From Prochlorococcus sp. AG-355-B18 (GTDB lineage: Bacteria; Cyanobacteriota; Cyanobacteriia; PCC-6307; Cyanobiaceae), in the NCBI GenBank assembly GCA_003280965.1, contig QCDI01000001.1:64001-128000 (forward strand): a stretch of 64,000 bases of DNA, read 5' to 3'. Shown piece by piece: positions 29,440 to 43,761 of the stretch. Under the pieces are notes generated by a model that made no database searches, had not been told where the DNA came from, and saw only the letters and a program-made list of their open reading frames with translations. Position numbers and translations under genes: made by a program. Position 1 is the stretch's first letter, and each line of letters opens with the position of its first letter.

Positions 29440-29491
29440 TTCAATACGAAATGATGTAGTCATTTGATAATTGACAGTCTATCTCTTACGG

Positions 29492-29743
29492 CTATTTTTT
29501 AGCCCCTGTTTTAATAATATTTTTTCTTCTAAATTGAATATTTGCTGATATTTTTTCCGCCAAAGTTGGAAGATTTGGTGGCTCCAGCATAAGATAAACT
29601 CTTCCTGATTTTTCTAAATAAATATAGTCTTCTAATAAGTTTCTGTTGAGAAGTCGATAGATTGTTTTGGTGGATTTATAGCCTAATTTTTTTGCTGCAT
29701 GGCTAATCGTAAAAGCTTCAATTTCGAATGACTTTGGTTTCAT
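29492..29743 (-). CDS. Excisionase-like HTH DNA-binding protein
   Basis: FTISHAAKKLGYKSTKTIYRLL. Confidence 0.65.
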   Translation of the reverse strand: MKPKSFEIEAFTISHAAKKLGYKSTKTIYRLLNRNLLEDYIYLEKSGRVYLMLEPPNLPTLAEKISANIQFRRKNIIKTGAKK

Positions 29744-30027
29744 AATATTCTGTTTGATTCCTATAAGTAGAGTATCCAAATCTCTTTAATCTTCTTTGAT
29801 GTAATTCCCAATTTTTAGTATTTATATCTGGGCTTTTAAGTTCCCTTTCATATTGAATAGTTCGATAACTCTTAACACCATTTTTTTTTTCTTAATGCAG
29901 AAGTAAACCCAATAACTGATAAAAAAAATATAAGTACTATTACAAATCCAACTGTACTTTCAATATCTATTTTGTCCTGATATTCCTCTAATGAACTTTT
30001 AGTAGTTGCTATAAAAATTTTTTTCAT
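29718..30027 (-). pseudogene. Frameshifted paralog of 4884-5174
   Basis: TM N-terminus, shift in A10 run (29881-29890), then SPDINTKNWELHQRRLKRFGYSTY. Confidence 0.6.
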
Positions 30028-30065
30028 TTATATGATCGGTGCAAGTAGTGAGCGTTTCATTTTAT

Positions 30066-30326
30066 TTAAAAATCATCAATAATATTTAAAGTTAGATAAT
30101 CATTTATTTGATCTACATTAACTAAATTTCTTGATGTCATTATTGAAGGAATAAAGACGCAAGTTATGATCAATGAAGCAAAAGTTAGTCCATATACTTT
30201 CGGTTTTAACCTAAAACCTTTTAGCCTTTTATGTAAAAAATCTAAGTTAAATTTTTTTGATTCTTGCTTATAAGAAAGTGCATTCTCAATCATTTGATTA
30301 AGACGTTCCTTTTTTAATTTAGACAT
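30066..30326 (-). CDS. Putative anti-sigma factor (single TM)
   Basis: Overlaps the sigma-factor stop; one TM helix. Confidence 0.55.
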   Translation of the reverse strand: MSKLKKERLNQMIENALSYKQESKKFNLDFLHKRLKGFRLKPKVYGLTFASLIITCVFIPSIMTSRNLVNVDQINDYLTLNIIDDF

Positions 30327-30870
30327 ACAATAATTCCTCCAATAAATCCTTAGGCAAAATAGTTTTTAATTTTTTGCGAGCCCGTATAATTAGGCTTTCA
30401 GTAGCTTTTTCAGTTTTTTTTAAAATATTAGACACTTCCTTCTGTTTGTAACCACAAAAATAATGTAGCAGAATTGCTTCTTTTTGATGTGTAGGAAGTT
30501 TTTGAATATTATTCAATAGCATTTTTCTTAATTCATAATTACTGTTGTTATTTGTAATTTCTAGATTGGAATAATAATCTTTAAATTCATTGGAGCTTTT
30601 ATGTCTTCTTAGGAAATCCATACAAGTTGAAAACACTATCTTATAAACATATCCTTCAACACTTCCTTTATTTACCCAACGAGGAGCTGATTGCCAAATT
30701 TTAATTAAAGAAATTTGTACTACATCATCTGCATCGTCAAAATGCGTTGAACCCAAAAATTTAATTGCTGTTGCATGCATTTTGTATCCCAAAGCATTTG
30801 CTATAAAACGGAAGGATTCCTTATCACCCTTAGCAGTTTTAAGCATATAAGAGTTTAATTCCTCAGACAT
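30319..30870 (-). CDS. ECF (group 4) sigma-70 factor
   Basis: GDKESF...DADDVVQ...IW (region 2), LPTHQKEAILLHYFCGYKQKEVS...RARKKL (region 4); 183 aa. Confidence 0.9.
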   Translation of the reverse strand: MSEELNSYMLKTAKGDKESFRFIANALGYKMHATAIKFLGSTHFDDADDVVQISLIKIWQSAPRWVNKGSVEGYVYKIVFSTCMDFLRRHKSSNEFKDYYSNLEITNNNSNYELRKMLLNNIQKLPTHQKEAILLHYFCGYKQKEVSNILKKTEKATESLIIRARKKLKTILPKDLLEELLYV

Positions 30871-30873
30871 TCT

Positions 30874-31173
30874 TTACTTCTCTTTATTCCTAAATTTTAA
30901 CCTTTTTCTTAATTCATACCTAAGTGCGCGTAATTCTTTTTTTGATAATTTACTATCAGCATTTTTATCAAAGTTTATAAATATTTTATCTATTCGAGCA
31001 CTATGAGCTGACATCATTTCGTCTTTTGAGAGAAGTCCATCTCCATTAGTATCTATCCTTTGAAAACGCCCACGCATCTTCATAAAATTATTCTTCTCAT
31101 AGATTGGATTGGCATAAGAGGGCAGTGCAATAAAAAAGCTCAATGCCAAAATTAAAATTGAAGAGTTTTTCAT
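30874..31173 (-). CDS. Secreted EF-hand protein
   Basis: Signal peptide; DTNGDGLLSKDE and DKNADSKLSKKE loops. Confidence 0.88.
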   Translation of the reverse strand: MKNSSILILALSFFIALPSYANPIYEKNNFMKMRGRFQRIDTNGDGLLSKDEMMSAHSARIDKIFINFDKNADSKLSKKELRALRYELRKRLKFRNKEK

Positions 31174-31232
31174 AAAGGTAATTAATATCTATAAATCATT
31201 AACGCAAAAATTGATAAAATCCTTCGCGAAAT

Positions 31233-31313
31233 CAATAAGGAGCTAAATGCATCTTATTTTAGATCGACTGTCAATTGTAATTAATATAGCTGTGCAAGTA
31301 GTAAGCGTTTCAT
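31233..31313 (-). repeat. Composite cassette-boundary repeat (B + A)
   Basis: ATGAAACGCTTACTACTTGCACAGCTATATTAATTACAA-TTGACAGTCGATCTAAAATAAGATGCATTTAGCTCCTTATT. Confidence 0.85.
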
Positions 31314-31726
31314 CTAGGAAGTATTCTATTTAATTCGGGATATTCAATTCTTAATTCTTCTATAAATGCATCAACGGTCTTTGATATCTCGTCAGTAGTA
31401 TTCAAAATAGAATTTTTATATTTTAGATATTCGGAAACTTGAAATAATTTCATAGTTGATTTTGTTAAAAGTAATGTTGCAAGAGGAGATTTATCTGCCA
31501 ATTTAGTTGAAGGAAAATATTTTATAGTTTCAGGATAAGTTTTTTCCATATCCTCAATATAGTCTTCTATCTTTTCATTTAATTCATCATATTTTGATGA
31601 TAAAAACTTTTTGGTATTTAAATATTCAAAACCTGCGAATAAAAAACCAATAGGAAAACTTAAAAATAATATTGAAAGAGAAAGCCTAAGAAGATTTTGG
31701 GAAAATTTTTCCATAGAAATAATCAA
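31310..31726 (-). CDS. Hypothetical protein, N-terminal TM
   Basis: Stop TGA lies inside repeat B. Confidence 0.6.
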   Translation of the reverse strand: MIISMEKFSQNLLRLSLSILFLSFPIGFLFAGFEYLNTKKFLSSKYDELNEKIEDYIEDMEKTYPETIKYFPSTKLADKSPLATLLLTKSTMKLFQVSEYLKYKNSILNTTDEISKTVDAFIEELRIEYPELNRILPR

Positions 31727-31825
31727 TTAAATTTATTTAAAACATATCAAGGTTAAAAGTAAGTAAAGCATGTAATATTTTTGCTTTCTTCTTCCGATCC
31801 ACTGAAATATTTAATTTTTATAATT

Positions 31826-31880
31826 TCTATATCGACTGTCAATCGTATTTAATATAGCGGTGCAATTAGTAAGCGTTTCA
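31826..31880 (-). repeat. Composite cassette-boundary repeat (B + partial A)
   Basis: TGAAACGCTTACTAATTGCACCGCTATATTAAATACGA-TTGACAGTCGATATAG. Confidence 0.85.
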
Positions 31881-32273
31881 GTTTTTATTGTTAACTAATC
31901 CATAGATACATAAAAGAGGATTCACTATCAAAACAATCCAGAAAGGAGGAGGGGGTCCTCCATCAACAATTGTCCCAGCGTTAAAAGTATTAAATAGAGC
32001 TACTGCCAAAAAACAAAACATCAAAGCTAATTCACCTGATAAAACTTTTCTTAAGGAGGCTTTATCTTTAATGGAACTACAAATAATCAATAAAAAACCT
32101 ATTCCTAAATTACTAGCAGCTACAACATCTGCAGTACCTCTAACAAGAAGCAATGTTTCACTTGAAGCGTTGCCTGCAATAGTTTCCACTGAAAAAATTA
32201 GTAGAGAAATAATTAACAACCCCAACAGGATATGAAGCGCTCCAGTAGTTTTTAAAATATTTTTTAACTTCAT
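31878..32273 (-). CDS. Four-TM membrane protein, paralog of 20580-20975
   Basis: Direct comparison; bracketed by repeats A and B. Confidence 0.8.
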   Translation of the reverse strand: MKLKNILKTTGALHILLGLLIISLLIFSVETIAGNASSETLLLVRGTADVVAASNLGIGFLLIICSSIKDKASLRKVLSGELALMFCFLAVALFNTFNAGTIVDGGPPPPFWIVLIVNPLLCIYGLVNNKN

Positions 32274-32317
32274 AAAAAAAGGAGCTTATTTCCCCCTTAT
32301 TGTAGATCGACTGTCAA
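32274..32317 (-). repeat. Cassette repeat A
   Basis: TTGACAGTCGATCTACAATAAGGGGGAAATAAGCTCCTTTTTTT then ATG. Confidence 0.9.
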
Positions 32318-32371
32318 ATTAATCTGTTTAAAAATATCTACTGTTAATATGAATTAAATTTTTAAATTAAG

Positions 32372-32629
32372 TTGGTTTACTTTAAGAGAGAGTTTATTAA
32401 ATCCCTTAAAATAAAAGGCTCTATATTTTTAATTGTGATAATTATTGGATTTATTTACTCAAGTCCAAAGTCAAGGGTAATTATTGCAAATTCTTTTACT
32501 TCTTCAGCCAAATTTTTAAATGAAACTGTCGAAACAAAAAATAAAGATAGTTGGTTTTCTGAACCAGATTTCGTATTCAGTATTAGGTTAAGATTACGAG
32601 AATTTTTAAGAGGAACTCAAAGAGGTTGA
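32372..32629 (+). CDS. Hypothetical protein
   Basis: ORF track, one TM. Confidence 0.4.
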   Translation: MVYFKREFIKSLKIKGSIFLIVIIIGFIYSSPKSRVIIANSFTSSAKFLNETVETKNKDSWFSEPDFVFSIRLRLREFLRGTQRG

Positions 32630-32668
32630 AAAAGAAATAATTGCCCCTTATTGTAGATCGACTGTCAA
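32630..32668 (-). repeat. Cassette repeat A
   Basis: TTGACAGTCGATCTACAATAAGGGGCAATTATTTCTTTT. Confidence 0.85.
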
Positions 32669-32782
32669 TAATTGAAGTCTTACGTTGACTTATATAGCTC
32701 AAAAAAACGTCACATAGAGTTTGACGATTATGGAAAATTTAGACGAAATGCTGCTAAAACTTAAAAAGTTATTACTTATAAA

Positions 32783-33052
32783 ATGTTTTTAGGTGCATCT
32801 GTATTTTTTATTGTTGGATTCCCGATTCTTGGAATATTTATTCTTCTGGCAATGATGCTAAACAAGTTAGATAGTATAAGTAGATCAAATAAATTACTTC
32901 TTGCCTATATGGTTAATCCTGATTGTATGTTGGAGGCTACTAATTCCGATGTAGTTATTAGTAATGCAATGAAAGCGGCTAAAAAATATAAAGGTGAATC
33001 TGCACAAGTAAAAGAATTTTTTAACCAAATAAACCCACTTATTGTTTTTTAG
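32783..33052 (+). CDS. Hypothetical membrane-anchored protein
   Basis: ATG ORF. Confidence 0.5.
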   Translation: MFLGASVFFIVGFPILGIFILLAMMLNKLDSISRSNKLLLAYMVNPDCMLEATNSDVVISNAMKAAKKYKGESAQVKEFFNQINPLIVF

Positions 33053-33188
33053 TTCCCATTGGGAATAGTTCGGGAAGTGGTGTTTTGTTATTCATACCAA
33101 TAGATATAGTCCTATTCCTTCCCGATAGATAGAGATAGGGGTATTTTTTAGGAGCTATCTCTATGTCATGGGAACTAGGAACACTAAA

Positions 33189-34433
33189 TTAGTTGATATA
33201 ACTACTGTTTGATGACTTCCCTATAGTATTTACTGGGTAATGATCGGGAACTGATAGTTTTTGTATATCTTTTGGATTTAAAGCATAAACACCTTTTTTA
33301 GGTCTTCTTAGCTTTTTACTATTAACCATATTGCCAAGCGTATTATCTACAGTTTTTCTTGCTGCGGAAGCAATATTAAATGCAGTAGTGACAATATCAG
33401 CCCTTCTTACTTCTGTTTGTCCTTGTTTATAGAAATCGCTCATAATTTCAAGAATTACATCATTGCAACTTCCCACTATTTCTTTATCGTCTTCTAGTAC
33501 CATTTCGCACTCTTCCAATCTATAAGTAACACGCCTTCTAGGATCTATATTTGCTGCTCTATCTTTCTTAAATTCAGCAGTTACCCCATTTTGTACCTTT
33601 GTATCTTCATCAATGTTTGGTTTTAAACTAATAACCATTGATGGTTCTTCAGCCCAACTTTTAGCCCCTGCATGAGCACCTCTAGCAGTTCCGTCATGGC
33701 TCAAAATTTCAATATGAGCATTATTAGGTACAGCAATAACGTCTCTTATGACCCTTATAAAATCTCTTACCTGTACATTATCTAAGTAGTTAAATGCACC
33801 AGAACTAATACTTTTTGCACTATCAATAACCACATAATCAATACCTTCATATTGGACAAAATTTTCTAATTTAATAATTCCATTGATATTTCCATACAAT
33901 GCCTGTTGTCCTTGTTTAGAGTCAAAACCCCATACAAATATTTTTTGTTCTTCACCTTCTTTCAATACAGCATCATTTTCAATTCCTAAGTCATACATGG
34001 CTTTTTTAAAAGTACTTACCCCACCATCTGTACAAATAAATAAACTTTTACCTTTTTTACATGGTGAACTTCTATCTAAAATATTTTCACCTTTTGCAAA
34101 TTTATAGGCTTTATATAATGCGTGGGTTGTTTTGCCAGAACCATAAGAACCATAGGTTAAAGAAACATCACCTTTTATTAACCACCCGTCCATTAAATAG
34201 GTAAGAGGTTCAACAGTTGTTAGGTCAATAGATTTTTTTAAAGCAGGTCTAAAATCTGACTTCATGTGATAAAAATATTTCATCACTTTTCTTGTTATTT
34301 GATCGTCAGAATATTTAAACCTTTGTTTTATCAAGCTATAAATTCTTGCTTCTTCATCTTCATCTACCTGTCTAATTGCAGCTAATAAATCATCAATTAA
34401 AAAGGTAATTTTCTCTTCTTCATAAGAGTTCAT
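33189..34433 (-). CDS. AAA_25/RepA-like replicative helicase
   Basis: YLMDGWLIKGDVSLTYGSYGSGKTT Walker A, YVVIDS Walker B, C-terminal winged-helix-like region. Confidence 0.8.
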   Translation of the reverse strand: MNSYEEEKITFLIDDLLAAIRQVDEDEEARIYSLIKQRFKYSDDQITRKVMKYFYHMKSDFRPALKKSIDLTTVEPLTYLMDGWLIKGDVSLTYGSYGSGKTTHALYKAYKFAKGENILDRSSPCKKGKSLFICTDGGVSTFKKAMYDLGIENDAVLKEGEEQKIFVWGFDSKQGQQALYGNINGIIKLENFVQYEGIDYVVIDSAKSISSGAFNYLDNVQVRDFIRVIRDVIAVPNNAHIEILSHDGTARGAHAGAKSWAEEPSMVISLKPNIDEDTKVQNGVTAEFKKDRAANIDPRRRVTYRLEECEMVLEDDKEIVGSCNDVILEIMSDFYKQGQTEVRRADIVTTAFNIASAARKTVDNTLGNMVNSKKLRRPKKGVYALNPKDIQKLSVPDHYPVNTIGKSSNSSYIN

Positions 34434-34697
34434 TTAGACCCCCATTTTCTCATAGGAAGCAATCTTCTTGGCAGCTACATCTTCAGGTACATTTTCAGAT
34501 TCTTTTGTTTTATCAATCTGCCATTGTCGAATAGCTCTTACATTCCAAAGAACATTGCTCTTAGGTTTACCAGTTATATATAGCCAATGTTCACCAGCTA
34601 TAAATTCATTGGAGTTTTTAAGTTCCCATAATAAAGATTGGCTTACGCCAATAAGTTCTGATGTCTTTGCGACACCATGCCATTCAGTTAAGTTCAT
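34434..34697 (-). CDS. Excisionase/AlpA-like HTH protein
   Basis: WHGVAKTSELIGVSQSLLWELK...GEHW; resembles 41847-42107. Confidence 0.7.
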   Translation of the reverse strand: MNLTEWHGVAKTSELIGVSQSLLWELKNSNEFIAGEHWLYITGKPKSNVLWNVRAIRQWQIDKTKESENVPEDVAAKKIASYEKMGV

Positions 34698-35107
34698 TAG
34701 ATTAGTTATGTAATATCGGTAGCCCTTGCACAACTAACTCTTTGCCCGAACACACAGTAAATAAGTAGAGGAGTTTTCAGTTGATAGTTCGGTGGCGTTA
34801 AAACGCTAGCTGATTCTGACGGAACTCTTGCCCCCTTCTTTTTCCGATTTAACGGGAGGTTCTTTAAGACAAGTCGATCGCTACGAAGCCCCTCTGATGA
34901 CTTCTTTCTATTCAATATTATTAGGCAATAATTTAGAACTGTCTAGAAGTTTGTGGGAAAGGCAAGAAGCATAGGGGTATACCCGTTAGATATAGTCCAG
35001 TTTCTTTTACTAGCTATCCCATTCTTATCCCACAACCAAAATTTAAAATTCAAAGCAATAAAAAAGAGAGTCTGGGTAACTCTCTAGTATAACTTGGTTT
35101 TTAAGAG

Positions 35108-35153
35108 TCGGGGCGACAGGATTCGAACCTGCGACCTAGTGCTCCCAAAGCAC
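35108..35153 (-). repeat. att site: 46-bp duplicate of the tRNA-Pro 3' half
   Basis: TCGGGGCGACAGGATTCGAACCTGCGACCTAGTGCTCCCAAAGCAC, identical to 42693-42738. Confidence 0.97.
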
Positions 35154-35269
35154 TGGACACCCCTAGATGAGCACTGGTGTTACAAGCTATAGCTAATTAA
35201 TTGCGTAGTATTGCGTAATTTGTATAGACAAACTATTATAAATATGACATAAATATGACATAAATTTAA

Positions 35270-36520
35270 ATGATTGATTGGACTGCTAGTTTACAAAAAA
35301 GAGCCAGGAAAATTGCAAGAGAATGTGGCTTAGTTGGTCTTACTCTTATAAAGAATGGTAAGAAGGCACAAGTTAAATATAGAAAGGCTGAAGGTTCAAA
35401 AGTTATATCTCAGGAAACAGTAATGCTTGAACATGAGTGGATTCAAGCTAATGAAGATGATATTTACACCAGATTCAGAAATATATGCAAATTAATGGGA
35501 GAAAGTGGTCATAACTTAAAAGCTGCTGCTGTTATTGCTAAAGGTAATGCACCAAAAGAAGGAAAAGATTGGAAGAATATATTAGAAAGTTTTAAAGATC
35601 AGAAAACCAACTTTGGTAATGCAATAGCTGAGAAGACTTGGAAGAAAGATTATAAGTCTTGCGTAATGGCTGTAGAAGTTATGGCTCAAAAGAATCCTCC
35701 TACTAATGCAGCAGATTTAATAGATGTATGTTTAAAAGATTTTGATGCTGGTAGTAGAACAAGACAGATAAGAGCTAGAGCATTAAGTCAGTTTTTAACT
35801 CATGCAGTTACTAGAGAGAATCTTCCTGATACTTGGCTACCTCCAAAAGATTTAAAACAACATATTGGAAGGGCTAAAAAAGGAGAACTTAAAACCCAGA
35901 AGGGCGACCCATTTAGTGAAGATACCCAAATATTAGATTTATTGGCATCATTACCAACCAATGCAGAATTTAAGCGTGATTCTGAATCTGCTACTAAATG
36001 GTTTAATGCTCTTTGCATGATGAGTGAATTAGGTTTAAGACCTAATGAAGTTGGGAAGATGGTTGTTAAAAAAGACCCAGCTACTAAAGAATATTATTGG
36101 TGGTGTACTTATGAGAAGAAAGCTGGTGGTGGTACAACTAAACCTAGAAAAGTTGAGCCATTACCTCTAATAGATAGAGACGGAAAAGAAGTTCAATGGA
36201 ATTTATTAGAAAGATTTAGAAGTAACCTACTTCCATTACCAGAGAAGATGGATGGAGAATCTTGTAAGGATTATTTAAGTAGAAGGCAAGGTTGGAAAGA
36301 TTTAAAAGAAATGATGCTAAAGAAAGAAGGTGCAAATATTGTTCCTTATTCATTCAGGCATTACTACAGCCTTCGAGGTCATATTGCAGGCATTGATTCT
36401 GGAAGTATGGCTAAGAGCATGGGGCATTCAATAGAAGCCCACCATAGAAACTATCCTTATTCTTCAGAAGCAAGTACTACTAACGCATTTAAAAGAGCTA
36501 GAGAAAGAGCTACGGCTTAA
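35270..36520 (+). CDS. Tyrosine recombinase/integrase
   Basis: LGLRPNE (R), YSFRHYY (HxxR variant), MGHS...HHRNY (H, Y). Confidence 0.93.
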   Translation: MIDWTASLQKRARKIARECGLVGLTLIKNGKKAQVKYRKAEGSKVISQETVMLEHEWIQANEDDIYTRFRNICKLMGESGHNLKAAAVIAKGNAPKEGKDWKNILESFKDQKTNFGNAIAEKTWKKDYKSCVMAVEVMAQKNPPTNAADLIDVCLKDFDAGSRTRQIRARALSQFLTHAVTRENLPDTWLPPKDLKQHIGRAKKGELKTQKGDPFSEDTQILDLLASLPTNAEFKRDSESATKWFNALCMMSELGLRPNEVGKMVVKKDPATKEYYWWCTYEKKAGGGTTKPRKVEPLPLIDRDGKEVQWNLLERFRSNLLPLPEKMDGESCKDYLSRRQGWKDLKEMMLKKEGANIVPYSFRHYYSLRGHIAGIDSGSMAKSMGHSIEAHHRNYPYSSEASTTNAFKRARERATA

Positions 36521-36523
36521 TAA

Positions 36524-36566
36524 TTGACAGTCGATCTACAATAAGGGGGAATTAGCTCCTTTTTTT
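36524..36566 (+). repeat. Cassette repeat A
   Basis: TTGACAGTCGATCTACAATAAGGGGGAATTAGCTCCTTTTTTT, 3 nt after the integrase stop and directly before ATG. Confidence 0.9.
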
Positions 36567-36845
36567 ATGTCTCTTGAAACTACTGTTTTTACATTCAAAA
36601 TTAGTGTCCCTTATGAAGAATGGGCTGCTGTTTATGACAGTGAAGAAAATATAAAAATGATGAAAGAAACTGGAATGACATGCTTATACAAAGGTGTAAA
36701 TAAAGATGATCCAACCAGTGTAATTGTCATTGAGCAGGGTGAAGAAGGTAAAGCAATAGCTATGTTTAAAGATCCAGAAGTTAAACCTTTAATTGAGAGT
36801 GCAGGTCATATTTATGATTCGACTGTTATATCAAGCTACTTTTAA
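36567..36845 (+). CDS. DUF3764-like protein (cargo 1)
   Basis: Paralog of 11746-12027. Confidence 0.78.
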   Translation: MSLETTVFTFKISVPYEEWAAVYDSEENIKMMKETGMTCLYKGVNKDDPTSVIVIEQGEEGKAIAMFKDPEVKPLIESAGHIYDSTVISSYF

Positions 36846-36889
36846 TTGACAGTCAATCTAAAATAAAGGGCAATTAGCTCCTTTTTTTT
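36846..36889 (+). repeat. Cassette repeat A
   Basis: TTGACAGTCAATCTAAAATAAAGGGGCAATTAGCTCCTTTTTTTT fills the whole intergenic space. Confidence 0.9.
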
Positions 36890-37180
36890 ATGGAAGCAAT
36901 AGTTATATTATTTTTTTTAGTTCCAATTTTATTTATTGTTTTTCTTGTTTCAGACCCTTTTAAACGTCAACGAGAATTGGCTGCTAATAGAAAGTGGGAT
37001 GGATGGATTAAGGACAGCAAAAAAAATCCTAAGACTTTTTATAAACTTACAAAAGAAGAACAATTGAGTATGGCAAGGTCAAATAGATACGGAACAAATG
37101 AACAAATTGGGAAAAGAGGTGGAAGATATGAAACAAGATATTCTAAAAAAACTGGTAAACCATATAGACATTATTTTTAA
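36890..37180 (+). CDS. Membrane-anchored basic protein (cargo 2)
   Basis: N-terminal TM, GKRGGRY motif. Confidence 0.65.
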   Translation: MEAIVILFFLVPILFIVFLVSDPFKRQRELAANRKWDGWIKDSKKNPKTFYKLTKEEQLSMARSNRYGTNEQIGKRGGRYETRYSKKTGKPYRHYF

Positions 37181-37600
37181 ATGAAACGCTTACTACTCCC
37201 ACTAATAGCAGCCCTCGCTTTACCTACTGCTGTTAATGCTGAAACTTTTTATTTAAAATGCACAACCTTAAAAGGTAGAGGAAATCCTGATAAGCCATTT
37301 AAAACCTTTGCAGATCCAACAGTTGATAATCACCAATTCACATTAAATGAAGATAATCAATCTGCGGTTTACTACCTTGCTGAAAAAGGCACTTCTATAA
37401 AAATAGATAATGTCAACTTCAACCAAGAAAGCATTGATATGAGTTATAAATCAGGAAAAAATTTCTCAGGAGATACTTTTAAGACTATTTCGATTAATAG
37501 ACTAACTGGAGGATTAGTCATGGAATCTGATTTAGGTTTTCAAGTAATGAGGTTTGAGGGTCAATGTAAAAAATCAGAGCCAAAGAAAACTTTGTTTTAA
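37181..37600 (+). CDS. Secreted protein (cargo 3)
   Basis: Signal peptide MKRLLLPLIAALALPTAVNA; INRLTG...GQC. Confidence 0.75.
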   Translation: MKRLLLPLIAALALPTAVNAETFYLKCTTLKGRGNPDKPFKTFADPTVDNHQFTLNEDNQSAVYYLAEKGTSIKIDNVNFNQESIDMSYKSGKNFSGDTFKTISINRLTGGLVMESDLGFQVMRFEGQCKKSEPKKTLF

Positions 37601-37624
37601 ATGAAACGCTTACTACTTGCATAA
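37601..37624 (+). repeat. Cassette repeat B (MKRLLLA*)
   Basis: ATGAAACGCTTACTACTTGCATAA abutting the cargo 3 stop. Confidence 0.85.
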
Positions 37625-37896
37625 AAAAGAGGGTAAAGCTGCACCAAAACCCTCTTGAATACCACACCGTCAAAATCCAATGGCTACATTGAAGTGACTC
37701 ACTTTTATGATAGCTAGAATATTATTTTTGTAGTATAATTTCAATAATTAAATATTATTTAGTGACTTTAAATAAACAAATTAAATATAAACAATTTAAC
37801 GAAGTTTATCAAGTCAAAGCCTGCAAAGTTGGGCAACTATATGATACTTTATCCAACCCACAAGCTAGAAGATTAATTAAGGAGGTTTCCTAAAAG

Positions 37897-38292
37897 ATGG
37901 ATTTAAACGAATTAATTGATAAAACCCACTTCGATTATGAACAAAACGAAACAAAAGCAAAGCAGTTAGAAGAACGAATTTTGAAAGTGCCTGGAATGTT
38001 AAAAGAGTATCTTCCTAAGAGAAAATATGGGGAAAATTATAAAGGCGACCAACTAGGTGTAACTGCATCATCTTTAATAGTTAAAGGAGATAAAGCCCTA
38101 GCAGCTTTCTTAGGACTTGACCTTAATTATTGGAAAGAAAAAGCAAAAGCTGAAGAAGAACGTGAAGCCTACTTAACCGCCTTTAAAGAAAAGACAGAAG
38201 CACTAAGACAAAAGAATCAGGAACAAAGAATGGCTAGAGAAAAAAGAACTATATGGAATCAAACTCATGGTGTAGATCAAAGGAGGTTTTAA
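37897..38292 (+). CDS. Hypothetical protein with coiled-coil C-terminus
   Basis: AGGAGG upstream; first gene of a tightly coupled four-gene operon. Confidence 0.75.
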   Translation: MDLNELIDKTHFDYEQNETKAKQLEERILKVPGMLKEYLPKRKYGENYKGDQLGVTASSLIVKGDKALAAFLGLDLNYWKEKAKAEEEREAYLTAFKEKTEALRQKNQEQRMAREKRTIWNQTHGVDQRRF

Positions 38293-38631
38293 ATGCGTTT
38301 TGCAAGACAGCACCCTTATTACGGTTGGTTGTTTTTAGAACCTGCCGATTATCGAAGGATATATAACCAACTTATTCAAATGAGAGATGCAGATATAAAG
38401 AAGGGGGATAACTCCTCAGGGTTTCCCTCTGGTTTTCCTGAGTGGTGTGAAGATGATATTAAAGAATTAGCCAAAGAAGATAAATATAAAAAACGCATAG
38501 CTACCCACTTAGAGCAATTAAAAATTTCTATTGAAAATAGAAGAAGAGAACTTGCTAACACCTACCTAGCTGAAGAACTTAAAAAGATGGAAACCAAATC
38601 TGAATTTATAGAAAGTTTAGTAGGTTCTTAA
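38293..38631 (+). CDS. Hypothetical protein
   Basis: AGGAGG RBS, abuts upstream stop. Confidence 0.7.
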   Translation: MRFARQHPYYGWLFLEPADYRRIYNQLIQMRDADIKKGDNSSGFPSGFPEWCEDDIKELAKEDKYKKRIATHLEQLKISIENRRRELANTYLAEELKKMETKSEFIESLVGS

Positions 38632-38843
38632 TGCACACAGATAAACCAACTATTTCTTTAGAGGTTCAAGCCTTATCAGAATGTTTAAAGGTTATCGCAG
38701 AAAATGATTACACCTATACAGCGTGTCCTTTGACCATCTCCCTTTTTGCTACTTCTTGGGTCTGGACTTGTAGAGATATTATGGAGAACTATTTATGGCC
38801 AGCAGAAGATTTATTGGAGCTACAACATGGCGATAGTAAGTAG
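38631..38843 (+). CDS. Hypothetical protein
   Basis: TAATG coupling. Confidence 0.6.
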   Translation: MHTDKPTISLEVQALSECLKVIAENDYTYTACPLTISLFATSWVWTCRDIMENYLWPAEDLLELQHGDSK

Positions 38844-39192
38844 AGCAGAACGAAAAAGACGTAGATGTGTTGCTCTCGAGAGATTAACCTCTGGCATGGG
38901 GGTGTCTGAAGTAACCAGAACGCTAGTCAGGGACTACGGAATTACTCGTAGAAGTGCGAATCTGGATATCAACTGGGCAAGTGCTCAAATGATAAAGAAC
39001 CTCGAGAAGTACGAGAAAAGTGATCTGTTGGCATGGCTTGTGACCCAGACTGAGAGGGTATATATTAAAGCCCTGGAATCTAACCAATTAAGTGCAGCTA
39101 TAGGAAGTTTGAATTTAATGCACAAGATTACGATTGAAGCAGCAGATAAAGGAACAGGCAAATATAGATTTCATGGAAACTATAAACATTAA
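38827..39192 (+). CDS. HTH protein, terminase small subunit-like
   Basis: GGAG RBS and ATG 38827; N-terminal HTH (YGITRRSA), C-terminal VYIKALESNQLSAAIGSLNLMHKI helix pair. Confidence 0.55.
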   Translation: MAIVSRAERKRRRCVALERLTSGMGVSEVTRTLVRDYGITRRSANLDINWASAQMIKNLEKYEKSDLLAWLVTQTERVYIKALESNQLSAAIGSLNLMHKITIEAADKGTGKYRFHGNYKH

Positions 39193-39335
39193 TCTCAGGT
39201 GTCTTGGACACGGTTTTCAAAAAACTGGACACAATTCTGCTTATTTAATCTCAAAGTAAGACGTCAAAACCATTGTAAATTCGTTAATCAGTCTCATTAT
39301 TTATTAGGTGTACTGTCCAACTGACAATACTTTTT

Positions 39336-39507
39336 TGTGGCATTGTGGCTGTGGCACTAGGGGTTTTATATATTTACTACCCTTTTCCTATCCATATCTA
39401 TATATCTATTATTTATATAAAATATATGCCACAAGTGGATAAAACCTACTAAACCCAGTTAGGGAGGTTGATTTAGTCTGTGGCATTATCTGTGGCAGTT
39501 TGTGGCA
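39336..39507. repeat. TGTGGC iterons around an AT-rich tract (putative origin)
   Basis: Copies at 39336, 39344, 39350, 39479, 39491, 39501; inverted copy at 39428. Confidence 0.7.
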
Positions 39508-40834
39508 GTCTTCTATAGATAGAAGTCTTTTCAGTTTTAGTTGTATCATCTAATTCAAACCTAGCTCTCTCTCCTTTTATCCATCCTAATTGTTGAAGTC
39601 TGGTTGCTATTGCTCTTGTATATTTAGCGTCTTTAGTCTTTTGTTGTATCTCGCTATGAATTAATCCTTCATTTAATAATTTAACTACAACTCTTATACA
39701 AATATCATCCCTTTTATAGTTATCCAATGCTTCTTCCATCTCTTCTAGTAATGGGTCATGGGCGGCAAATTGCATGGCCTGATTATTAAGGTCAACTATC
39801 TCTTTCTTGTCATACCACCATCTAACTCCATCTAAATAGTCATTCTTGGCTGAAGCAAATATCTGGTCTCTATGTTCTTGTACCCATTCAGCATTAATCT
39901 TATTGGCACTTATTATTGGAAACCTTCTATTCCCCGTAGGGTCTTTTATAAAGTTTCTTTTATTAGTAGTACCTACGAGAATACACTTTCTATCTTTAAG
40001 AGAGTTGGTCTTTTCATGGGGGTATCTAAAATTATCCTTTTGCTCAGACATAAAGTGCTTAATATTCTCTGAGCTTTGCATACCCATAATGCGATCTATT
40101 TCTCCCCAGTTATGAAACCAAGCAGAGTGCAGGGTAATTAATGTGTCCTTATGATTATTACCACCTATGCTCCCTAGACTTGAGCAATACCATTCTCCTC
40201 CTAATGCTTCCCAGATAGCTTCCTTACCTTCTCCCTGTGAGTCAGTTTGGAGTATTAATGCTGTATCTACCTTGCATGGCTGCTTATAAGTACGAGCTAC
40301 AGCAGCAATCATTTGTCTCTGGAAATGTACTGAATGTTGAGGGTTTTTACTGCCGAAGATATGGAAGGCAATATTATTCCAGGTGTCTTCAGGTAATGGG
40401 TCATTACATCCATTTAGATAGTGTTCTACTGGGTTATATTTATTTCTTTCAGAGAGTAATACAACTACATTCCTCGCATTATTTTCTTTAATATCTAAGC
40501 GATTTTTTTCGGCTAGTTCAAGATAAAAGGTACTTAAGAAGTTACCTGAGATGGGCTTACCATTTAACTCTATCTTTCCAGTAATAGTATTCAGTTTGAA
40601 ATCGTATATATCCCCAATAATTTGAACCAACTTATCTTTTCTTGGTCGGATAAGGCTTTCAACTGCAACTTCTCCTTTTGGCCTTTTCTGTGGTTTGGTT
40701 GTTGGTTTTTCTTCAACAACCTCCGCATCTACCTTCTCAATAAAACTTTCTGTTGCTGTTGGTTCTTTAGAAACAATCTGAGCATCAAACTTTCTTAAAA
40801 AGGGTTCTAAATTTGGGTTATTCAAGTTACTCAT
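39473..40834 (-). CDS. VapE/VirE-family helicase-like protein
   Basis: YNPVEHYL, QGEGK, ILVGTTN, DPTGNRRF, RDQIFA...WW. Confidence 0.88.
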   Translation of the reverse strand: MSNLNNPNLEPFLRKFDAQIVSKEPTATESFIEKVDAEVVEEKPTTKPQKRPKGEVAVESLIRPRKDKLVQIIGDIYDFKLNTITGKIELNGKPISGNFLSTFYLELAEKNRLDIKENNARNVVVLLSERNKYNPVEHYLNGCNDPLPEDTWNNIAFHIFGSKNPQHSVHFQRQMIAAVARTYKQPCKVDTALILQTDSQGEGKEAIWEALGGEWYCSSLGSIGGNNHKDTLITLHSAWFHNWGEIDRIMGMQSSENIKHFMSEQKDNFRYPHEKTNSLKDRKCILVGTTNKRNFIKDPTGNRRFPIISANKINAEWVQEHRDQIFASAKNDYLDGVRWWYDKKEIVDLNNQAMQFAAHDPLLEEMEEALDNYKRDDICIRVVVKLLNEGLIHSEIQQKTKDAKYTRAIATRLQQLGWIKGERARFELDDTTKTEKTSIYRRLPQTATDNATD

Positions 40835-41850
40835 TTTGATTTAGGTCTCCAACCATGTTGTTGAGCTATACGGATAAAAGTGCCTGCCTTTATATGCCCC
40901 TTCCTTGATCTGACTACTTGTTCTACATTCCATCCACTTACTTCACCACTTGGGCTATGAGCTTCTAATAGTTGTATGGCATCAGATTCTGAATAACCCA
41001 TATCAATTAACAGTTCAGTAAAACCCCAAGCCATATTTCTATATTCCTCATAAGTGTTATTTCCTTGAACCCTTGGAGGAATATGATCTAAAGCAACTAT
41101 TATTTCTTCAATTTTCCAATCACTTTGAACTACTTTTGGTTTATTAGGTTTTATTTCTAAAGGTTCAGGTTTTTCTGGTTCTGGTAAACAATCCTCTATA
41201 TCTTTATAGGAATATTCTTTTTGAGTGACGTTGATTAACCTAACTCGTTCTGTATGTTTGCCTTGTTTATTGACGTAATAAAACCCAGGTAAACGCATAA
41301 CCCTAGAAGGGTTTTTAATCATTGGGTCTGACTTGGTGTAATCAACAAGACGTTTCTGAATAGGCTTCCAGATTAGTTGTGATACAGGCTTTTTAAGTAC
41401 CAAATAACTATGAATACTGTTACCTGTTTCGACTTGGAAGGTAGGTTCTGGAAGATTTAATTCCTTCCATTTATAGACTTGTTCTTTTTTTGGAATATCA
41501 TCCCATTCAAAAAAGAAAGCACGACATAGAGTAATTTCAATGTCTTTTGTACCACCATCATTAACGACAAAGTAAATTCCCCTTCCTTCTAAATGAGCAT
41601 TAATAATTGGATCCCAATTTATGTAAATGCCATGACCATTAGGCTTATACTTTGGAAATTTAAATTCTCTGGCTGATAAGCCACCACCTTTATAGGTAAT
41701 GGCTCTCAACTCTGTATCTTCACAATTTTTATGGAGCAATTCCTCTAAAAAGAAAGAAGCGTAATTAAATGCTCCTCCTTTTAGAGTTCTAGCTAGAATA
41801 GTTTTAGAAGTAACTGAACTAGCCCGCCCCGAAAAGGCGGGTTTTTTCAT
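40831..41850 (-). CDS. RepB-type primase with PriCT-2-like C-terminal domain
   Basis: FFFEWDD, PTFQVETGNSIHSY, KNPSRVMRLPG; NTYEEYRN...GTF...A...GW. Confidence 0.82.
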   Translation of the reverse strand: MKKPAFSGRASSVTSKTILARTLKGGAFNYASFFLEELLHKNCEDTELRAITYKGGGLSAREFKFPKYKPNGHGIYINWDPIINAHLEGRGIYFVVNDGGTKDIEITLCRAFFFEWDDIPKKEQVYKWKELNLPEPTFQVETGNSIHSYLVLKKPVSQLIWKPIQKRLVDYTKSDPMIKNPSRVMRLPGFYYVNKQGKHTERVRLINVTQKEYSYKDIEDCLPEPEKPEPLEIKPNKPKVVQSDWKIEEIIVALDHIPPRVQGNNTYEEYRNMAWGFTELLIDMGYSESDAIQLLEAHSPSGEVSGWNVEQVVRSRKGHIKAGTFIRIAQQHGWRPKSK

Positions 41851-42107
41851 GCAGAAGCAACCTCCTTTTTGTTTTTAAAAGGTGCTGTTTCCATAGACTT
41901 TGCTCTTGCACTTGCAAGCCTATTTAAGACTTCATCGCAATTTTCAAGGTCATATAAGGTGTGACTATTTGGGTTTTGTGGAATTTTTCTTCTCCAACAA
42001 GTGCCCTCAATAAGCAAACCTTTATTTCTCATGGTTAGTAAGGTTCGTTCTGAGATACCTAACCAATCTGAAGCCACTTTTTGAGTGACCATTTTTTTCG
42101 CAGCCAT
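41847..42107 (-). CDS. Excisionase/AlpA-like HTH protein
   Basis: VASDWLGISERTLLTMR...GTCWRR. Confidence 0.75.
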   Translation of the reverse strand: MAAKKMVTQKVASDWLGISERTLLTMRNKGLLIEGTCWRRKIPQNPNSHTLYDLENCDEVLNRLASARAKSMETAPFKNKKEVASA

Positions 42108-42125
42108 TTTATGTGGTGGCTAAAT

Positions 42126-42341
42126 CTATTTCTCTATATTTCGTAAGTGACGAGGTATTGCAGTTTCATGCTTTTCCTCAATCAAGCCTTTCTCTCTGGC
42201 ATCTAAATAAGCATCTGCTAGTTCTTGGGTTCTTCCTCTATTGAACTTTGCAGTAGTATCAATAGTTGCTGTATATGCCTTTTTTGGAAGGCGTACAACA
42301 TGACCATTAACCTTTAGATATTTATCAGATTTCTTACTCAT
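42126..42341 (-). CDS. Hypothetical protein
   Basis: First ORF of the xis-primase-helicase operon. Confidence 0.6.
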   Translation of the reverse strand: MSKKSDKYLKVNGHVVRLPKKAYTATIDTTAKFNRGRTQELADAYLDAREKGLIEEKHETAIPRHLRNIEK

Positions 42342-42505
42342 ATTTTAAATAGGGGAGACAATTTCAAACCAATTTCTTGGTTTTAGTTATCCCATGCTCC
42401 CCTTACATTTCTTCAGGGTAGTCCAAGCTAGAGAGGGCTTGGCGACTCTTTCAAAATAGGCGGCGTTTACCTGACCTAAAGTCCAGAATCGAATAATTAC
42501 TATTT

Positions 42506-42543
42506 ACTATAAGGGTAAATTGTGAATGTGCAAGACAATTCAC
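42506..42543 (-). promoter_or_regulatory. Sigma-70 promoter with overlapping inverted repeat
   Basis: TTGCAC-16 nt-TATAGT; GTGAAT-N10-ATTCAC straddles the -35. Confidence 0.55.
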
Positions 42544-42692
42544 GAAATTAATTTTCCTAGTCCCCAACTGGGATATCGAATATCTACAAGTATCAACGCG
42601 AATTAACGCAAAGCTACGCAAATGACATAATTATGACATAAATGCAAATATGTCATATTCTCTAAATACCCCAGACTCATTGCTACAACTGA

Positions 42693-42766
42693 TCGGGGCG
42701 ACAGGATTCGAACCTGCGACCTAGTGCTCCCAAAGCACCCGCGCTACCAAGCTGCGCCACGCCCCG
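42693..42766 (-). tRNA. trnP: tRNA-Pro(UGG)
   Basis: CGGGGCGTGGCGCAGCTTGGTAGCGCGGGTGCTT-TGG-GAGCACTAGGTCGCAGGTTCGAATCCTGTCGCCCCGA. Confidence 0.98.
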
Positions 42767-43004
42767 CTTATAAGATCTTAGTTCATAAGAGACATCTATA
42801 AAAGACCAAATTCCTAAATTTTTTATAAAAAATCATTTTTGAGGTTAGAAAATGAATTTTTCACTATTTTTTACTAGAGATATTGATGTTTGTAACAAGA
42901 AATAAGATGTATAACTTCGTCTACACCTTTATGGGGAAATTGCTCAAGTCTAAATTGTATTAATTCACTCTTTTTATTTGATAATTTAAACTATATTTGT
43001 TCAA

Positions 43005-43658
43005 TTGTATTTTTTAATGATTAAAAGAATTCTTAAACCGCTTGAGATTTATATCCTCTCTGTAGCTTTCTTCTTCTCCGTCTCTTTCGACAGAAATTTA
43101 AATCTTGAAGATGTTGAAGAATCACCAGTTAAAAAACTTTTGGTAAATATTCATTTAATTTTGGATTCATTTACTAACTATGAACATCCACTTGGAGCTT
43201 TGTTTTTGATTTTCATCCTTGGATTAATTATTTGGGGACTTTTAGGTAAAGAATCAAGGCTGGCAAGTGATATTTATGGAATTATTTTGAGCTTTGCATG
43301 GTTTTTGGAACTTGTATCGATGAATTTGCTTTTAGTGTCTCCCCTAAAAGACCCTGTTTTACTTTTGGTTGAATTAGTTCTATTTGTACCAATAGTATTA
43401 ATTGGCTTTTCATGGTGGTATTGGAGACTAAATCATCAATCAAGAATAGGAAAAGGTAGGGAAGCAATTACTTTTGATAAAAAGCCTACTCCTTTTAGTT
43501 ATTTTGCAAAAACTGCATCTATTGTTGTAAGTGATACTACAGAGCACGGTGTTTGTGAAACAGATGTTGCGCGATTGATTCGAATTCTTAATGGCTTTGT
43601 TGTGTTAGATATTTTTGGATTAGCTCTTTCTAGAGCAGTAGGACTAGTTATTGCCTAA
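43005..43658 (+). CDS. Hypothetical membrane protein
   Basis: Multiple TM helices; likely start 43017. Confidence 0.75.
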   Translation: MYFLMIKRILKPLEIYILSVAFFFSVSFDRNLNLEDVEESPVKKLLVNIHLILDSFTNYEHPLGALFLIFILGLIIWGLLGKESRLASDIYGIILSFAWFLELVSMNLLLVSPLKDPVLLLVELVLFVPIVLIGFSWWYWRLNHQSRIGKGREAITFDKKPTPFSYFAKTASIVVSDTTEHGVCETDVARLIRILNGFVVLDIFGLALSRAVGLVIA

Positions 43659-43761
43659 ATAATGATCTTTAGTTTTAATTTTTATCACCCTATGGAAATA
43701 TCTGAGTAATAAACTCTTTAGAAGAATTATTATCAAAAATAATGTTTGAATATTGAAGAGT

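Follow-up and report, generated by a model that had tools for sequence, protein, structure and literature searches.

We find that the DNA downstream of a tyrosine-recombinase-like integrase gene in Prochlorococcus sp. AG-355-B18 is the variable cargo slot of an ~7.7-kb tRNA-Pro element of tycheposon-like build, in which single genes are bounded by two short repeats, A and B. The analysis was seeded on a stretch of 64,000 nucleotides (contig QCDI01000001.1, positions 64,001 to 128,000; here, the window), and coordinates are those of the window unless another contig is named (Table 1). On balance, we favor the explanation that A and B are portable start-of-gene modules, with A acting as terminator and promoter and B providing translational coupling and export, and that swaps at them proceed by general homologous recombination. 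Genes are thus most likely exchanged between genomes at A and B by ordinary recombination and not by an integron-type enzyme.

TABLE 1 Features of the tRNA-Pro element, its cargo slot, and the neighboring island
Feature	Coordinates	Strand	Remarks
Further A copies and B' relics	31232..32672	-	Neighboring island
Partial tRNA-Pro copy, one attachment-site repeat	35108..35164	-	Rfam tRNA, 31.2 bits
Integrase, 416 aa, tyrosine-recombinase-like	35270..36520	+	PF00589, 21.8 bits (cut-off, 27.1)
Repeat A, copy 1 (A1)	36521..36566	+	Ends at cargo-1 ATG (36567)
Parts of A1			Box ATTGACAGTCGATC, 36523-36536; TACAAT, 36537-36542; hairpin, 36543-36562; then T-run
Cargo 1, 92 aa, DUF3764	36567..36845	+	PF12594, E = 3.4e-33
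Repeat A, copy 2 (A2)	36843..36889	+	Ends at cargo-2 ATG (36890)
Parts of A2			Box, 36845-36858; TAAAAT, 36859-36864; hairpin and T-run up to ATG
Cargo 2, 96 aa, rare ORFan	36890..37180	+	N-terminal hydrophobic stretch
Repeat B, copy 1	37175..37240	+	Stop codon, ATG, signal-peptide coding MKRLLLPLIAALALPTAVNA
Cargo 3, 139 aa, secreted-type protein	37181..37600	+	
Repeat B, copy 2 (B')	37595..37624	+	7-codon relic (37601-37624), right edge of cargo slot
Conserved backbone hairpin	37627..37656	+	Fold; follows cargo slot in related elements
Four backbone ORFs (131, 112, 70, and 121 aa)	37897..39192	+	Families F1, F2, F3, and F5
Replication module: VapE-like (453 aa) and primase-like (339 aa) proteins	39473..41850	-	
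Intact tRNA-Pro (TGG), far end of element	42693..42766	-	

The element is bounded on one side by a 46-nt tRNA-Pro repeat and on the other by the intact tRNA-Pro gene; over these 46 nt the partial copy is identical to the gene in its 3' part, and the tRNA-Pro 3' end is the site of the integrase itself. The integrase lies at one end and is oriented inward, as fits a tycheposon, with a PF00589 match below the cut-off; it recovered no NCBIfam family at E ≤ 0.01, and no integron-integrase model matched it. Its homologs (E ≤ 1e-40) occur in 30 of 285 genomes of the genus. The replication module couples a VapE-like protein (PF05272; E = 8.1e-51) to a primase-like protein with a weak match to PF16793 (E = 0.0095). 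The four backbone ORFs, for which no Pfam family was recovered, are common to the related elements L050, L051, L055, and L058, and the hairpin that follows the cargo slot is found in the same four with differing stem letters. PADLOC searches assigned no defense family to the cargo and backbone proteins.

Beginning at the integrase stop codon (36518-36520), the boundaries of the three cargo genes are copies of A or B. A1 and A2 are direct repeats 322 nt apart and 91% identical over 46 nt; a search with the 43-mer of A1 (≤3 mismatches) matched only A1 itself, A2 falling outside it because of four differing positions, and gave 0 matches in 100 shuffles. A 23-mer of B occurs exactly at 37175-37197 and 37595-37617 (0.00 expected) and, with 3 mismatches, a third time at 31297-31319 on the minus strand, and the wider B pair, also direct repeats and 420 nt apart, is 82% identical over 38 nt. 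A sequence-only reading of this DNA had reported two copies of each repeat, gene boundaries made of repeats with almost no other intergenic DNA, and cargo genes unrelated to one another, and the coordinates and identities bear out all of this: both A copies end at ATGs, the stop of cargo 1 (36843-36845) overlaps A2, and the stop of cargo 2 abuts the ATG of B (37181). The three cargo proteins are mutually unrelated, cargo 1 being a DUF3764 protein and cargo 2 and cargo 3 having no match in Pfam or NCBIfam; cargo 2 also has none in PADLOC, and in 284 other genomes only two partial DNA matches to it were found among the matches listed.

Module A (~45 nt) occupies the entire gap between two same-strand genes and has a fixed order of parts: an invariant 14-nt near-palindromic box (6-nt arms and a 1-nt spacer), a TAnnnT hexamer, a G-rich hairpin with a T-run, and the ATG of the next gene. 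This anatomy was derived from 144 unique copies drawn by an exact 16-mer, in which the T at position 6 of the hexamer is kept and the forms include TAAAAT (54 copies), TAAACT (24), TAACAT (21), and TACAAT (17). The 31 nt after the hexamer have a mean fold of −6.3 kcal/mol versus −2.2 kcal/mol in shuffles and reach −4 kcal/mol or lower in 73% of the copies versus 16% of shuffles. Two unrelated stem sequences share this one hairpin architecture, with the T-run behind. An open ATG frame lies 41 to 51 nt from the box start in 77/144 copies, and a same-strand upstream ORF ends within −11 to +5 of A in about 48/146. The 7-bp hairpin and T-run of A1 were scored as terminator-like; cyanobacteria are not known to have Rho and hence depend on intrinsic terminators. 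Whole A copies fold no better than shuffles (z = −0.18 and −0.78), and a joint alignment and consensus fold of the 144 copies, in which the two hairpin types are out of register, returned only the box stem and was uninformative.

In A, a consensus promoter scan recovered nothing of the sigma-70 type because the spacing does not fit, the perfect TTGACA standing just 7 nt away from the hexamer, and promoter-like sites are not commoner in the region (12) than in shuffles (14.3). The box is conserved far beyond the need of a −10 promoter. In X15 and X16, RNA-library contigs with a loose end at 36559 take in the box, which fits upstream read-through or DNA carry-over and not transcription initiated 3' of the hexamer. 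The supplements of two papers (for the second, files 1 to 12 of 22) contained no sequence matching A, and neither a transcription start nor a 3' end at A was found. The motif string occurs in no relevant paper of those searched, and six unrelated papers contain only its shortest, 11-letter form.

Scans with nucleotide profiles and cores showed that A and B are genome- and genus-wide families. In this genome, A gave 20 nhmmer matches at E < 0.01, the profile having been built from 12 of these, and its 24-nt core (≤3 mismatches) was recovered in 147 of 151 genomes of the genus, including 51/51 high-quality ones, with 0 matches to the reversed control. In a family-level sample, a 20-mer of A occurred in 11/11 genomes of the genus and, among 239 genomes from 63 other genera, as single copies in only 2. 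The copies gather in a few regions per genome and occur across islands, often many kilobases from any integrase. Rfam searches (E ≤ 5, positions 29000 to 44000) recovered no family at A or B. A phage promoter was considered as the origin of A and dropped, since 50,697 phage records gave no match to a cyanophage and 2.9 million viral contigs only nine stretches with the exact 16-mer, four of which resemble island or tycheposon DNA. A had also been likened in size and location to PRE1, which the literature search, its reach not extending to the 2006 Science island paper, did not link to Prochlorococcus.

Module B, in contrast, is coding: it is the DNA-conserved 5' end (~60 nt) of a family of signal-peptide genes (MKRLLL...), usually placed directly after a stop codon, and the encoded peptide is of the Sec type with a VNA cleavage motif. 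This genome holds 24 copies versus 1 control match, and 137 of 151 genomes in the genus have it (1 control match in total). In L051, an unrelated gene begins with DNA that is 89% identical to B copy 1 over 63 nt. B' is found again in two other genomes (G060 and G016) with different flanks, and the backbone homology to L051 and L055 begins at 37623. The prochlorosin precursor genes, with a conserved leader and hypervariable core, offer a likeness, as there too unrelated 3' coding sequences follow a 5' coding module that is conserved in DNA; however, B encodes a Sec-type signal peptide and not a lanthipeptide leader, forms a cassette edge, and leaves noncoding relics.

We then compared the slot across genomes. 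In 13 integrase-anchored sequences the cargo between the integrase and the conserved backbone differs, so that related elements do not carry the same cargo in a fixed order at this slot; in L055 and L058 it holds neither A nor cargo. Among the matches listed for the 284 other genomes, no alignment crosses from one cargo gene to the next. Cargo 1 and cargo 3 recur elsewhere at 96 to 99% identity with the same flanking repeats and other neighbors, the contexts of cargo 1 numbering at least 8 on the upstream side and at least 7 on the downstream side. Of 59 homology-block ends in the 13 sequences, 28 fall within A/B intervals that make up 4.5% of 92.6 kb, an about tenfold enrichment, which places breakpoints at the repeats as the sequence-only reading had anticipated. 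A set of 45 sequences, biased by the choice of loci, gave 226/353 ends in A or B against a coverage of 5.8%. Shared cassettes of 97 to 99% identity terminate at A or B, the cargo-3 cassette (37173-37621) being 98.4% identical in the genome G119, where both flanks differ. Metagenome contigs likewise pile up and break off at A and B edges; their joints have sides of ≤30 nt and stem from mixed populations, and they were set aside as signs of deletions or circles, as were depth and uncovered parts as signs of expression or absence.

The position of the junction within A was approached through pairs of loci; as with the block ends, these counts, taken among genomes that are related, lack independence. 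In pairs with the same upstream and different downstream genes, the −10/hairpin part of A is the same in 12/69 and different in 33/69, and in pairs with different upstream and the same downstream genes it is the same in 14/22. The variable part of A therefore mostly moves with the downstream gene and the junction is usually at the box, with the 12 pairs pointing to a junction 3' of the variable part. Because BLAST ends extend of necessity through any conserved module, they do not reveal where inside A a crossover took place.

Whereas the anatomy, the range across the genus, the varying cargo, and the meeting of block ends with A and B are observed, the promoter and terminator activity of A, the role of its box, and the recombination pathway are inferred, as follows. 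The hairpin and T-run would halt transcription coming from the upstream gene, and the box and TAnnnT would start, and probably regulate, that of the downstream gene, whose A-derived leader would be short, U-rich, and lead directly into the ATG. B, sitting at the previous stop codon, would supply translational coupling and an export signal. As the same 16 to 60 nt recur at many loci and genomes, recombination inside them would swap, delete, or add intact genes; we take this to be general homologous recombination on short identical stretches, of the kind proposed for promoter-stem-loop (PeSL) elements in T4-like phages. The integrase would move the whole element at tRNA-Pro and would be unneeded for cassette exchange. 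A dedicated capture enzyme is not indicated, and two features count against one, namely, the two unrelated kinds of junction and crossovers on both sides of the variable part of A. Counting against homologous recombination is the placement of most junctions at the box, as a site-specific reaction would also give.

Several observations fit a different reading, in which A and B are merely functional gene heads (a regulated promoter/terminator and a signal peptide) with no role in recombination, the cassettes having been moved by other routes, such as decay of stacked tycheposons or illegitimate recombination, and the ends coinciding through selection for complete expression units and extension of alignments. 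The conservation pattern of A is that predicted by a function in transcription, box-plus-hexamer copies without hairpin or ATG stand downstream of cargo 1 (two classes, 16 loci in total), and 31 of the 59 block ends lie outside A and B. Nevertheless, we regard this as unlikely. In genes that are unrelated, B keeps both its synonymous sites and its rare codons (for Arg it uses CGC, which makes up 2% of Arg codons in this genome's long ORFs); its B' relics are noncoding, some with a mutated start codon, yet are conserved and recur at junctions, which protein function hardly explains; and blocks of 97 to 99% identity between different species end within a few nucleotides of the module edges on both sides.

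Recombination by homology also has to be weighed against dedicated gene capture, in which the box, and perhaps B, would be the core site of a tyrosine recombinase, either the adjacent integrase or another one, and a [hexamer-hairpin-ORF-box] unit would be excised and inserted as a circle, integron-like with a new kind of site. Of 15 integrase ORFs, 9 have A adjoining their stop despite 37 to 93% integrase identity, a second integrase of this genome has A 10 nt past its stop, the cassettes lie between direct repeats (A to A, 322 nt; B to B', 420 nt), the box is invariant and near-palindromic, and the usual junction is at the box. We nonetheless consider such capture quite improbable, since the box is present in nearly all genomes of the genus and often far from an integrase whose family is confined to 30/285, and since the integrase site is the 46-nt tRNA-Pro end, to which A bears no likeness. 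None of the 37 tRNA genes (±80 nt) resembles A (best score, 25; null maximum, 29), and a tRNA-derived A was rejected. Also against capture are the second junction sequence, B, which is unrelated to A and coding, the 12/69 informative pairs with a junction 3' of the variable part, and the promoter/terminator anatomy of A at a fixed distance from the ATG; moreover, tyrosine-recombinase cores are not known to have 6-nt arms and a 1-nt spacer. A specific form of the idea, which we hold to be distinctly doubtful, makes the promoter-embedded box ATTGACAGTCGATC the crossover site of a genus-confined recombination system catalyzed by a tycheposon or core tyrosine recombinase; if true, tycheposons and islands would capture single genes as [hexamer-hairpin-ORF-box] units. 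That A is a selfish REP/MITE-like miniature element transposing itself into intergenic gaps is very improbable: it is short and dispersed, with two small palindromes and tens of copies per genome, but this number is low for a REP family, A is oriented with the downstream gene at the ATG spacing given above, and no Y1 transposase is present (PF01797, 0 matches in a genome 99.35% complete; the control matched in 6/14 reference genomes).

Integrons carry single-gene cassettes beside a tyrosine-recombinase gene, with minimal intergenic DNA, a repeat at each boundary, and varying cargo; attC, which closes each cassette on its 3' side, is a long imperfect inverted repeat, and the cassettes lack promoters and are transcribed from a single one, Pc, beside attI. 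The present array resembles them in lying by a tyrosine-recombinase-like gene, in having a repeat at each boundary, and in cargo that differs between relatives. It differs in that A stands at the 5' end of genes with a −10-like hexamer and terminator-like hairpin, predicted for each copy, which would argue against a single Pc, in that A lacks the long imperfect palindrome of attC, and in an integrase that targets a tRNA gene and matches no integron-integrase model, with repeats also found far from integrases. The array is therefore no integron, on both integrase type and attC. The sequence-only reading had itself seen that the repeats are unlike attC, and indeed A has only the 7-bp terminator-type hairpin and heads the downstream gene. 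Of its proposed gene capture or shuffling, what is supported is that genes here behave as cassettes bounded by A and B, whereas the integron analogy as a mechanism is not; speaking against a capture linked to the integrase are the occurrence of A far from integrases throughout the 147/151 genomes, the narrow range of the integrase family, and the coding nature of B. A pdif module, which is flanked by oppositely oriented XerC/D sites, was likewise rejected, the A and B copies in the array all being direct repeats on one strand.

A closer parallel is offered by the PeSLs, which consist of a promoter and stem-loop terminator filling the stop-to-start gap, cluster beside ORFans in hyperplastic regions, and bound insertions, deletions, and replacements between relatives, with recombination between copies proposed and with promoter and terminator activity and mini-circles demonstrated (PMC2839356, PMC4122927). 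A likewise has a stem-loop and T-run within an intergenic module, its terminator being predicted from sequence, and ORFans that were inserted, deleted, or replaced between relatives are bounded by A and B. Unlike PeSLs, A resides in a cellular genome and a tycheposon and not in a phage, has no −35 at 17 nt (the invariant box abuts the hexamer, with TTGACA 7 nt upstream), and is conserved genus-wide and paired with a coding boundary module. Tycheposons are described as combining an integrase that sits at one end and faces inward with a tRNA gene, a partial repeat of the tRNA, a small replication module, and intervening cargo, with seven published target tRNAs (bioRxiv 10.1101/2020.12.28.424599). 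The present element matches this in its partial tRNA-Pro repeat, VapE-like module, and the cargo between, and its tyrosine-recombinase-like integrase fits in position and orientation. In that preprint, which describes cargo modules, we noted no shared boundary repeats, promoters, or terminators, the words "promoter" and "terminator" occurring 0 times in the main text; what is added here is how the slot is divided up and its cargo reshuffled.

Most flexible genes of Prochlorococcus lie in a few islands, and tycheposons explain the arrival of large modules but not the reshuffling of the numerous small genes whose function is unknown. Two genus-wide boundary modules, on which about half of all homology-block ends fall at the integrase-anchored loci, would give this small-gene turnover a concrete, testable handle. 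They would serve as adaptors, a gene behind A gaining a terminator-insulated start and one behind B gaining translational coupling and an export signal. That the box is invariant suggests one common putative DNA-binding factor for many island genes. Island genes have been reported to respond jointly to stress and phage infection, and such a factor could connect to these responses. An ECF sigma factor of the island (30319-30870) was rejected as the reader of the box, occurring in only 12/151 genomes against 147/151 for the motif. In the neighboring island, the A copies correspond to G000:C1 95232-95278, 96271-96319, and 96628-96672.

The sequence-only reading had proposed an integron-like array of single-gene cassettes behind an integrase, and its repeats proved to lie where it had put them. 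Two copies of repeat A (91% identity) and two exact copies of the 23-mer of repeat B mark the gene boundaries, each reaching from the stop codon of one gene up to the ATG of the following one or including it. Three small cargo genes are delimited in this way, of which cargo 1 encodes a DUF3764 protein, and no family was matched by cargo 2 or cargo 3. The element carrying the array (~7.7 kb, in a genome of 1.58 Mb and 31% G+C) is bounded by a partial tRNA and an intact tRNA-Pro, 46 bases of the former being identical to the 3' portion of the latter; between them lie the integrase, the repeat/cargo stretch, four small conserved ORFs, and VapE-like and primase-like proteins. This layout matches the description, in the main text of a preprint (bioRxiv 10.1101/2020.12.28.424599), of tycheposons, Prochlorococcus mobile elements at tRNA genes, and the element is tycheposon-like. 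Of the four tyrosine-recombinase-like ORFs in the genome, one besides this integrase also has A behind it. In the gap that separates the partial tRNA-Pro from the start of the integrase gene, a tandem 11-mer, ATAAATATGAC x2, may be an arm-type site of the integrase, and an ATPase gene and a small ORF just beyond the partial tRNA may represent the replication module left by a decayed neighboring element.

Features of the array, its element, and neighboring or related loci (window coordinates unless a compared locus, L, is named)
Feature	Position	Strand	Remarks
ECF operon	30066-31278	-	A copy at head, short B relic (B') upstream of that
Secreted EF-hand protein	ECF operon	-	99 aa
ECF-type sigma factor	ECF operon	-	183 aa; Sigma70_r2 and r4_2
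Overlapping protein	ECF operon	-	86 aa; one hydrophobic segment
AAA_25/KaiC-like ATPase + ORF	33189-34733	-	414 aa + 99 aa
Partial tRNA	35108-35164	-	Rfam
Tandem 11-mer	35237-35258	+
Integrase			416 aa; inward-facing; PF00589 21.8 bits, below cut-off
A1	36521-36566		46 nt
A2	36843-36888		46 nt
B, first copy	37175-37197
B, second copy	37595-37617
Cargo-3 cassette with both B copies	37173-37621
Backbone hairpin	37627-37656		conserved
VapE-like protein			element's replication module; E 8e-51
Primase-like protein			beside VapE-like protein
tRNA-Pro	42693-42766	-	intact
Shared cassette	L053 3891-4385 = L056 1267-1761		97-99% identity
Shared cassette	L053 3893-4973 = neighboring island of this genome		97-99% identity
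Shared cassette	L053 1961-3848 = L052 1299-3186		97-99% identity
Shared cassette	L048 1847-2401 = L056 3971-4525		97-99% identity

Homologs of the integrase (E ≤ 1e-40) were recovered from 30 of 285 genomes of the genus, and 12 of their loci were compared. All 12 have the integrase in common and, where the contig is long enough, the backbone of conserved ORFs and replication genes, which opens with a conserved hairpin. The gene content between the two differs in every locus, as expected of the proposed cassette turnover; two loci (L055 and L058) have neither A nor cargo. The integrase stop is adjoined by A in 9 of 15 integrase ORFs, and A follows a 60-aa ORF in two loci and a 228-aa ORF in one. 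Among the best-scoring matches listed in a DNA search of the 285 genomes with the cargo region, every alignment covered a single cassette, terminating where cargo 1 stops, within A2 or at its end, or at the B edges, and none continued across a boundary between cargo genes. Cargo 1 recurs at 96 to 99% identity in 26 other loci, nearly always preceded by A and always followed by at least its box (the invariant start of A), in at least eight upstream and at least seven downstream contexts. The cargo-3 cassette with both B copies is found in a different setting in another genome of the genus (G119; 98.4% identity), and further cassettes shared between species likewise end at A or B (see table).

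Scanning beyond this locus established A as a genus-wide family. With up to 3 mismatches allowed, its 24-nt core was detected in 147 of the 151 genus genomes sampled and in all 51 high-quality ones (reversed control, 0), typically in 4 to 15 copies grouped in a few regions; a profile built from 12 copies retrieved 20 from this genome (E < 0.01), grouped on a few contigs. In a family-wide sample, a 20-mer of A was present in 11/11 genomes of this genus; among the 239 genomes from 63 other genera, only 2 carried it, each as a single copy. An exact 16-mer searched against all species genomes returned at least 135 stretches, nearly all Prochlorococcus, with a handful of chance matches elsewhere. 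A is seen at sites remote from any integrase, and its range across genomes is much wider than that of this integrase family.

The anatomy of A was derived from 144 unique copies picked by the exact 16-mer. After the box, ATTGACAGTCGATC, comes a hexamer with T-A at positions 1 and 2 (partly fixed by the 16-mer query), T at position 6, and variable positions 3 to 5 (TAAAAT, 54 copies; TAAACT, 24; TAACAT, 21; TACAAT, 17). A hairpin of one of two unrelated sequence types (AAGGGGC...GCTCCTT or AGAGGG...CCCTCT) begins 1 to 2 nt past the hexamer, with a T-run behind it, and the mean fold energy of the 31 nt after the hexamer is -6.3 kcal/mol versus -2.2 in shuffles. In 77 of the 144 copies, an open frame begins with an ATG 41 to 51 nt from where the box starts, and in about one-third of 146 copies a same-strand upstream ORF ends at -11 to +5 relative to A, the TGA of the box itself sometimes providing the stop. 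Because the box is invariant, the hexamer is -10-like, and structure is kept while sequence is not, this is the pattern that a compact terminator-plus-promoter module would show, with both activities being inferred. Counting against the promoter reading, the box is present inside RNA-library contigs; no canonical sigma-70 site was detected in A by a promoter scan, as TTGACA lies only 7 nt from the hexamer. At most, the near-palindromy of the box (ATTGAC-A-GTCGAT, perfectly symmetric in A2 and in a further copy) hints at a protein that binds as a dimer. Box-plus-hexamer copies (TAAAGT or TAACCT) downstream of cargo 1 in L204-L209, L210, L212-L217, and L219-L221 stand without hairpin, T-run, or nearby ATG and may head noncoding transcripts or more distant genes. 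A short recurrent CCCTCGACCCTA-like motif adjoins A boxes in several genomes, including this one (G000:C1:246440-246480; also L219), and lies downstream of cargo 1 in L210, L212-L217, and L219-L221.

The second junction sequence, B, is unrelated to A. It has 24 copies in this genome (versus 1 control match) and occurs in 137 of 151 genus genomes (versus 1 control match in total). About 10 copies here head intact genes whose products have MKRLLLPL(L/I)AALALPTAVNA ahead of mature parts that are unrelated, and about a dozen are B' relics of 7 to 30 codons. B uses CGC, which accounts for 2% of Arg codons in the long ORFs of this genome, and a stop codon usually lies directly 5' of it. In other genomes, the ATG of some B' copies is replaced by ATA, TTG, ATT, or ACG, and therefore B' is kept as DNA rather than as peptide. 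The array's own B' relic, at 37601, recurs with other flanks in G060 (twice) and G016. B' often lies 34 to 35 nt upstream of A (13 of 146 copies), as it does at many metagenome contig joints.

Among 13 integrase-chosen sequences (92.6 kb; blocks of ≥200 nt at ≥90% identity), A/B intervals make up 4.5% of the sequence and hold 28 of the 59 distinct block ends; the genomes are related, and hence binomial P values overstate the enrichment. With cargo-anchored loci added, a set biased by locus choice, the figure is 226 of 353 versus 5.8%. As alignments extend through any conserved module, block ends do not give crossover points. Junctions were compared pairwise among the 144 A copies. In pairs with different upstream and the same downstream genes, the hexamer/hairpin part is shared along with the downstream gene in 14 of 22 and differs in 2; of 69 pairs with the same upstream and different downstream genes, 12 have this part in common and 33 differ in it (background rate of sameness, 4.7%). 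These counts place most junctions at the box and a clear minority 3' of the variable part.

We read the exchange as homologous recombination between short stretches of identity, by which cassettes would be swapped; genes as widespread as cargo 1 can also provide the homology. Less probably, a dedicated site-specific reaction would take place at the box; the anatomy of A differs from that which a recombination core site would be expected to have. A shows no similarity to tRNA regions, and no Y1 transposase was found in this genome. The integron analogy fails: the array has neither an IntI-type integrase nor an attC-type site, each of its cassettes brings predicted start signals, and it is not an integron. 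The closest functional analog is the promoter-early stem-loop (PeSL) of T4-like phages, for which homologous recombination between short identical stretches has been proposed (PMC2839356 and PMC4122927). Unlike PeSLs, the present module belongs to a cellular genome and a tycheposon, has the box in place of a -35 element, is conserved across a whole genus, and has a coding partner, B; its promoter/terminator activity is predicted and its circular by-products are putative. A literature search, which did not extend to the final tycheposon paper, its supplements, and the 2006 island paper and so limits any claim of novelty, returned no description of the A motif or of PRE1, a reported 48-bp Prochlorococcus repeat; the main text of the tycheposon preprint (bioRxiv 10.1101/2020.12.28.424599) makes no mention of promoters or terminators.

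The island operon headed by A encodes an ECF-type sigma factor found in only 12 of 151 genus genomes, and its 86-aa product is a possible anti-sigma factor. An 85-kb IMG/VR contig filed as viral (L010) ends, in its first 460 nt, with the A copy and flank that stand before this operon, and it may be island or tycheposon DNA.
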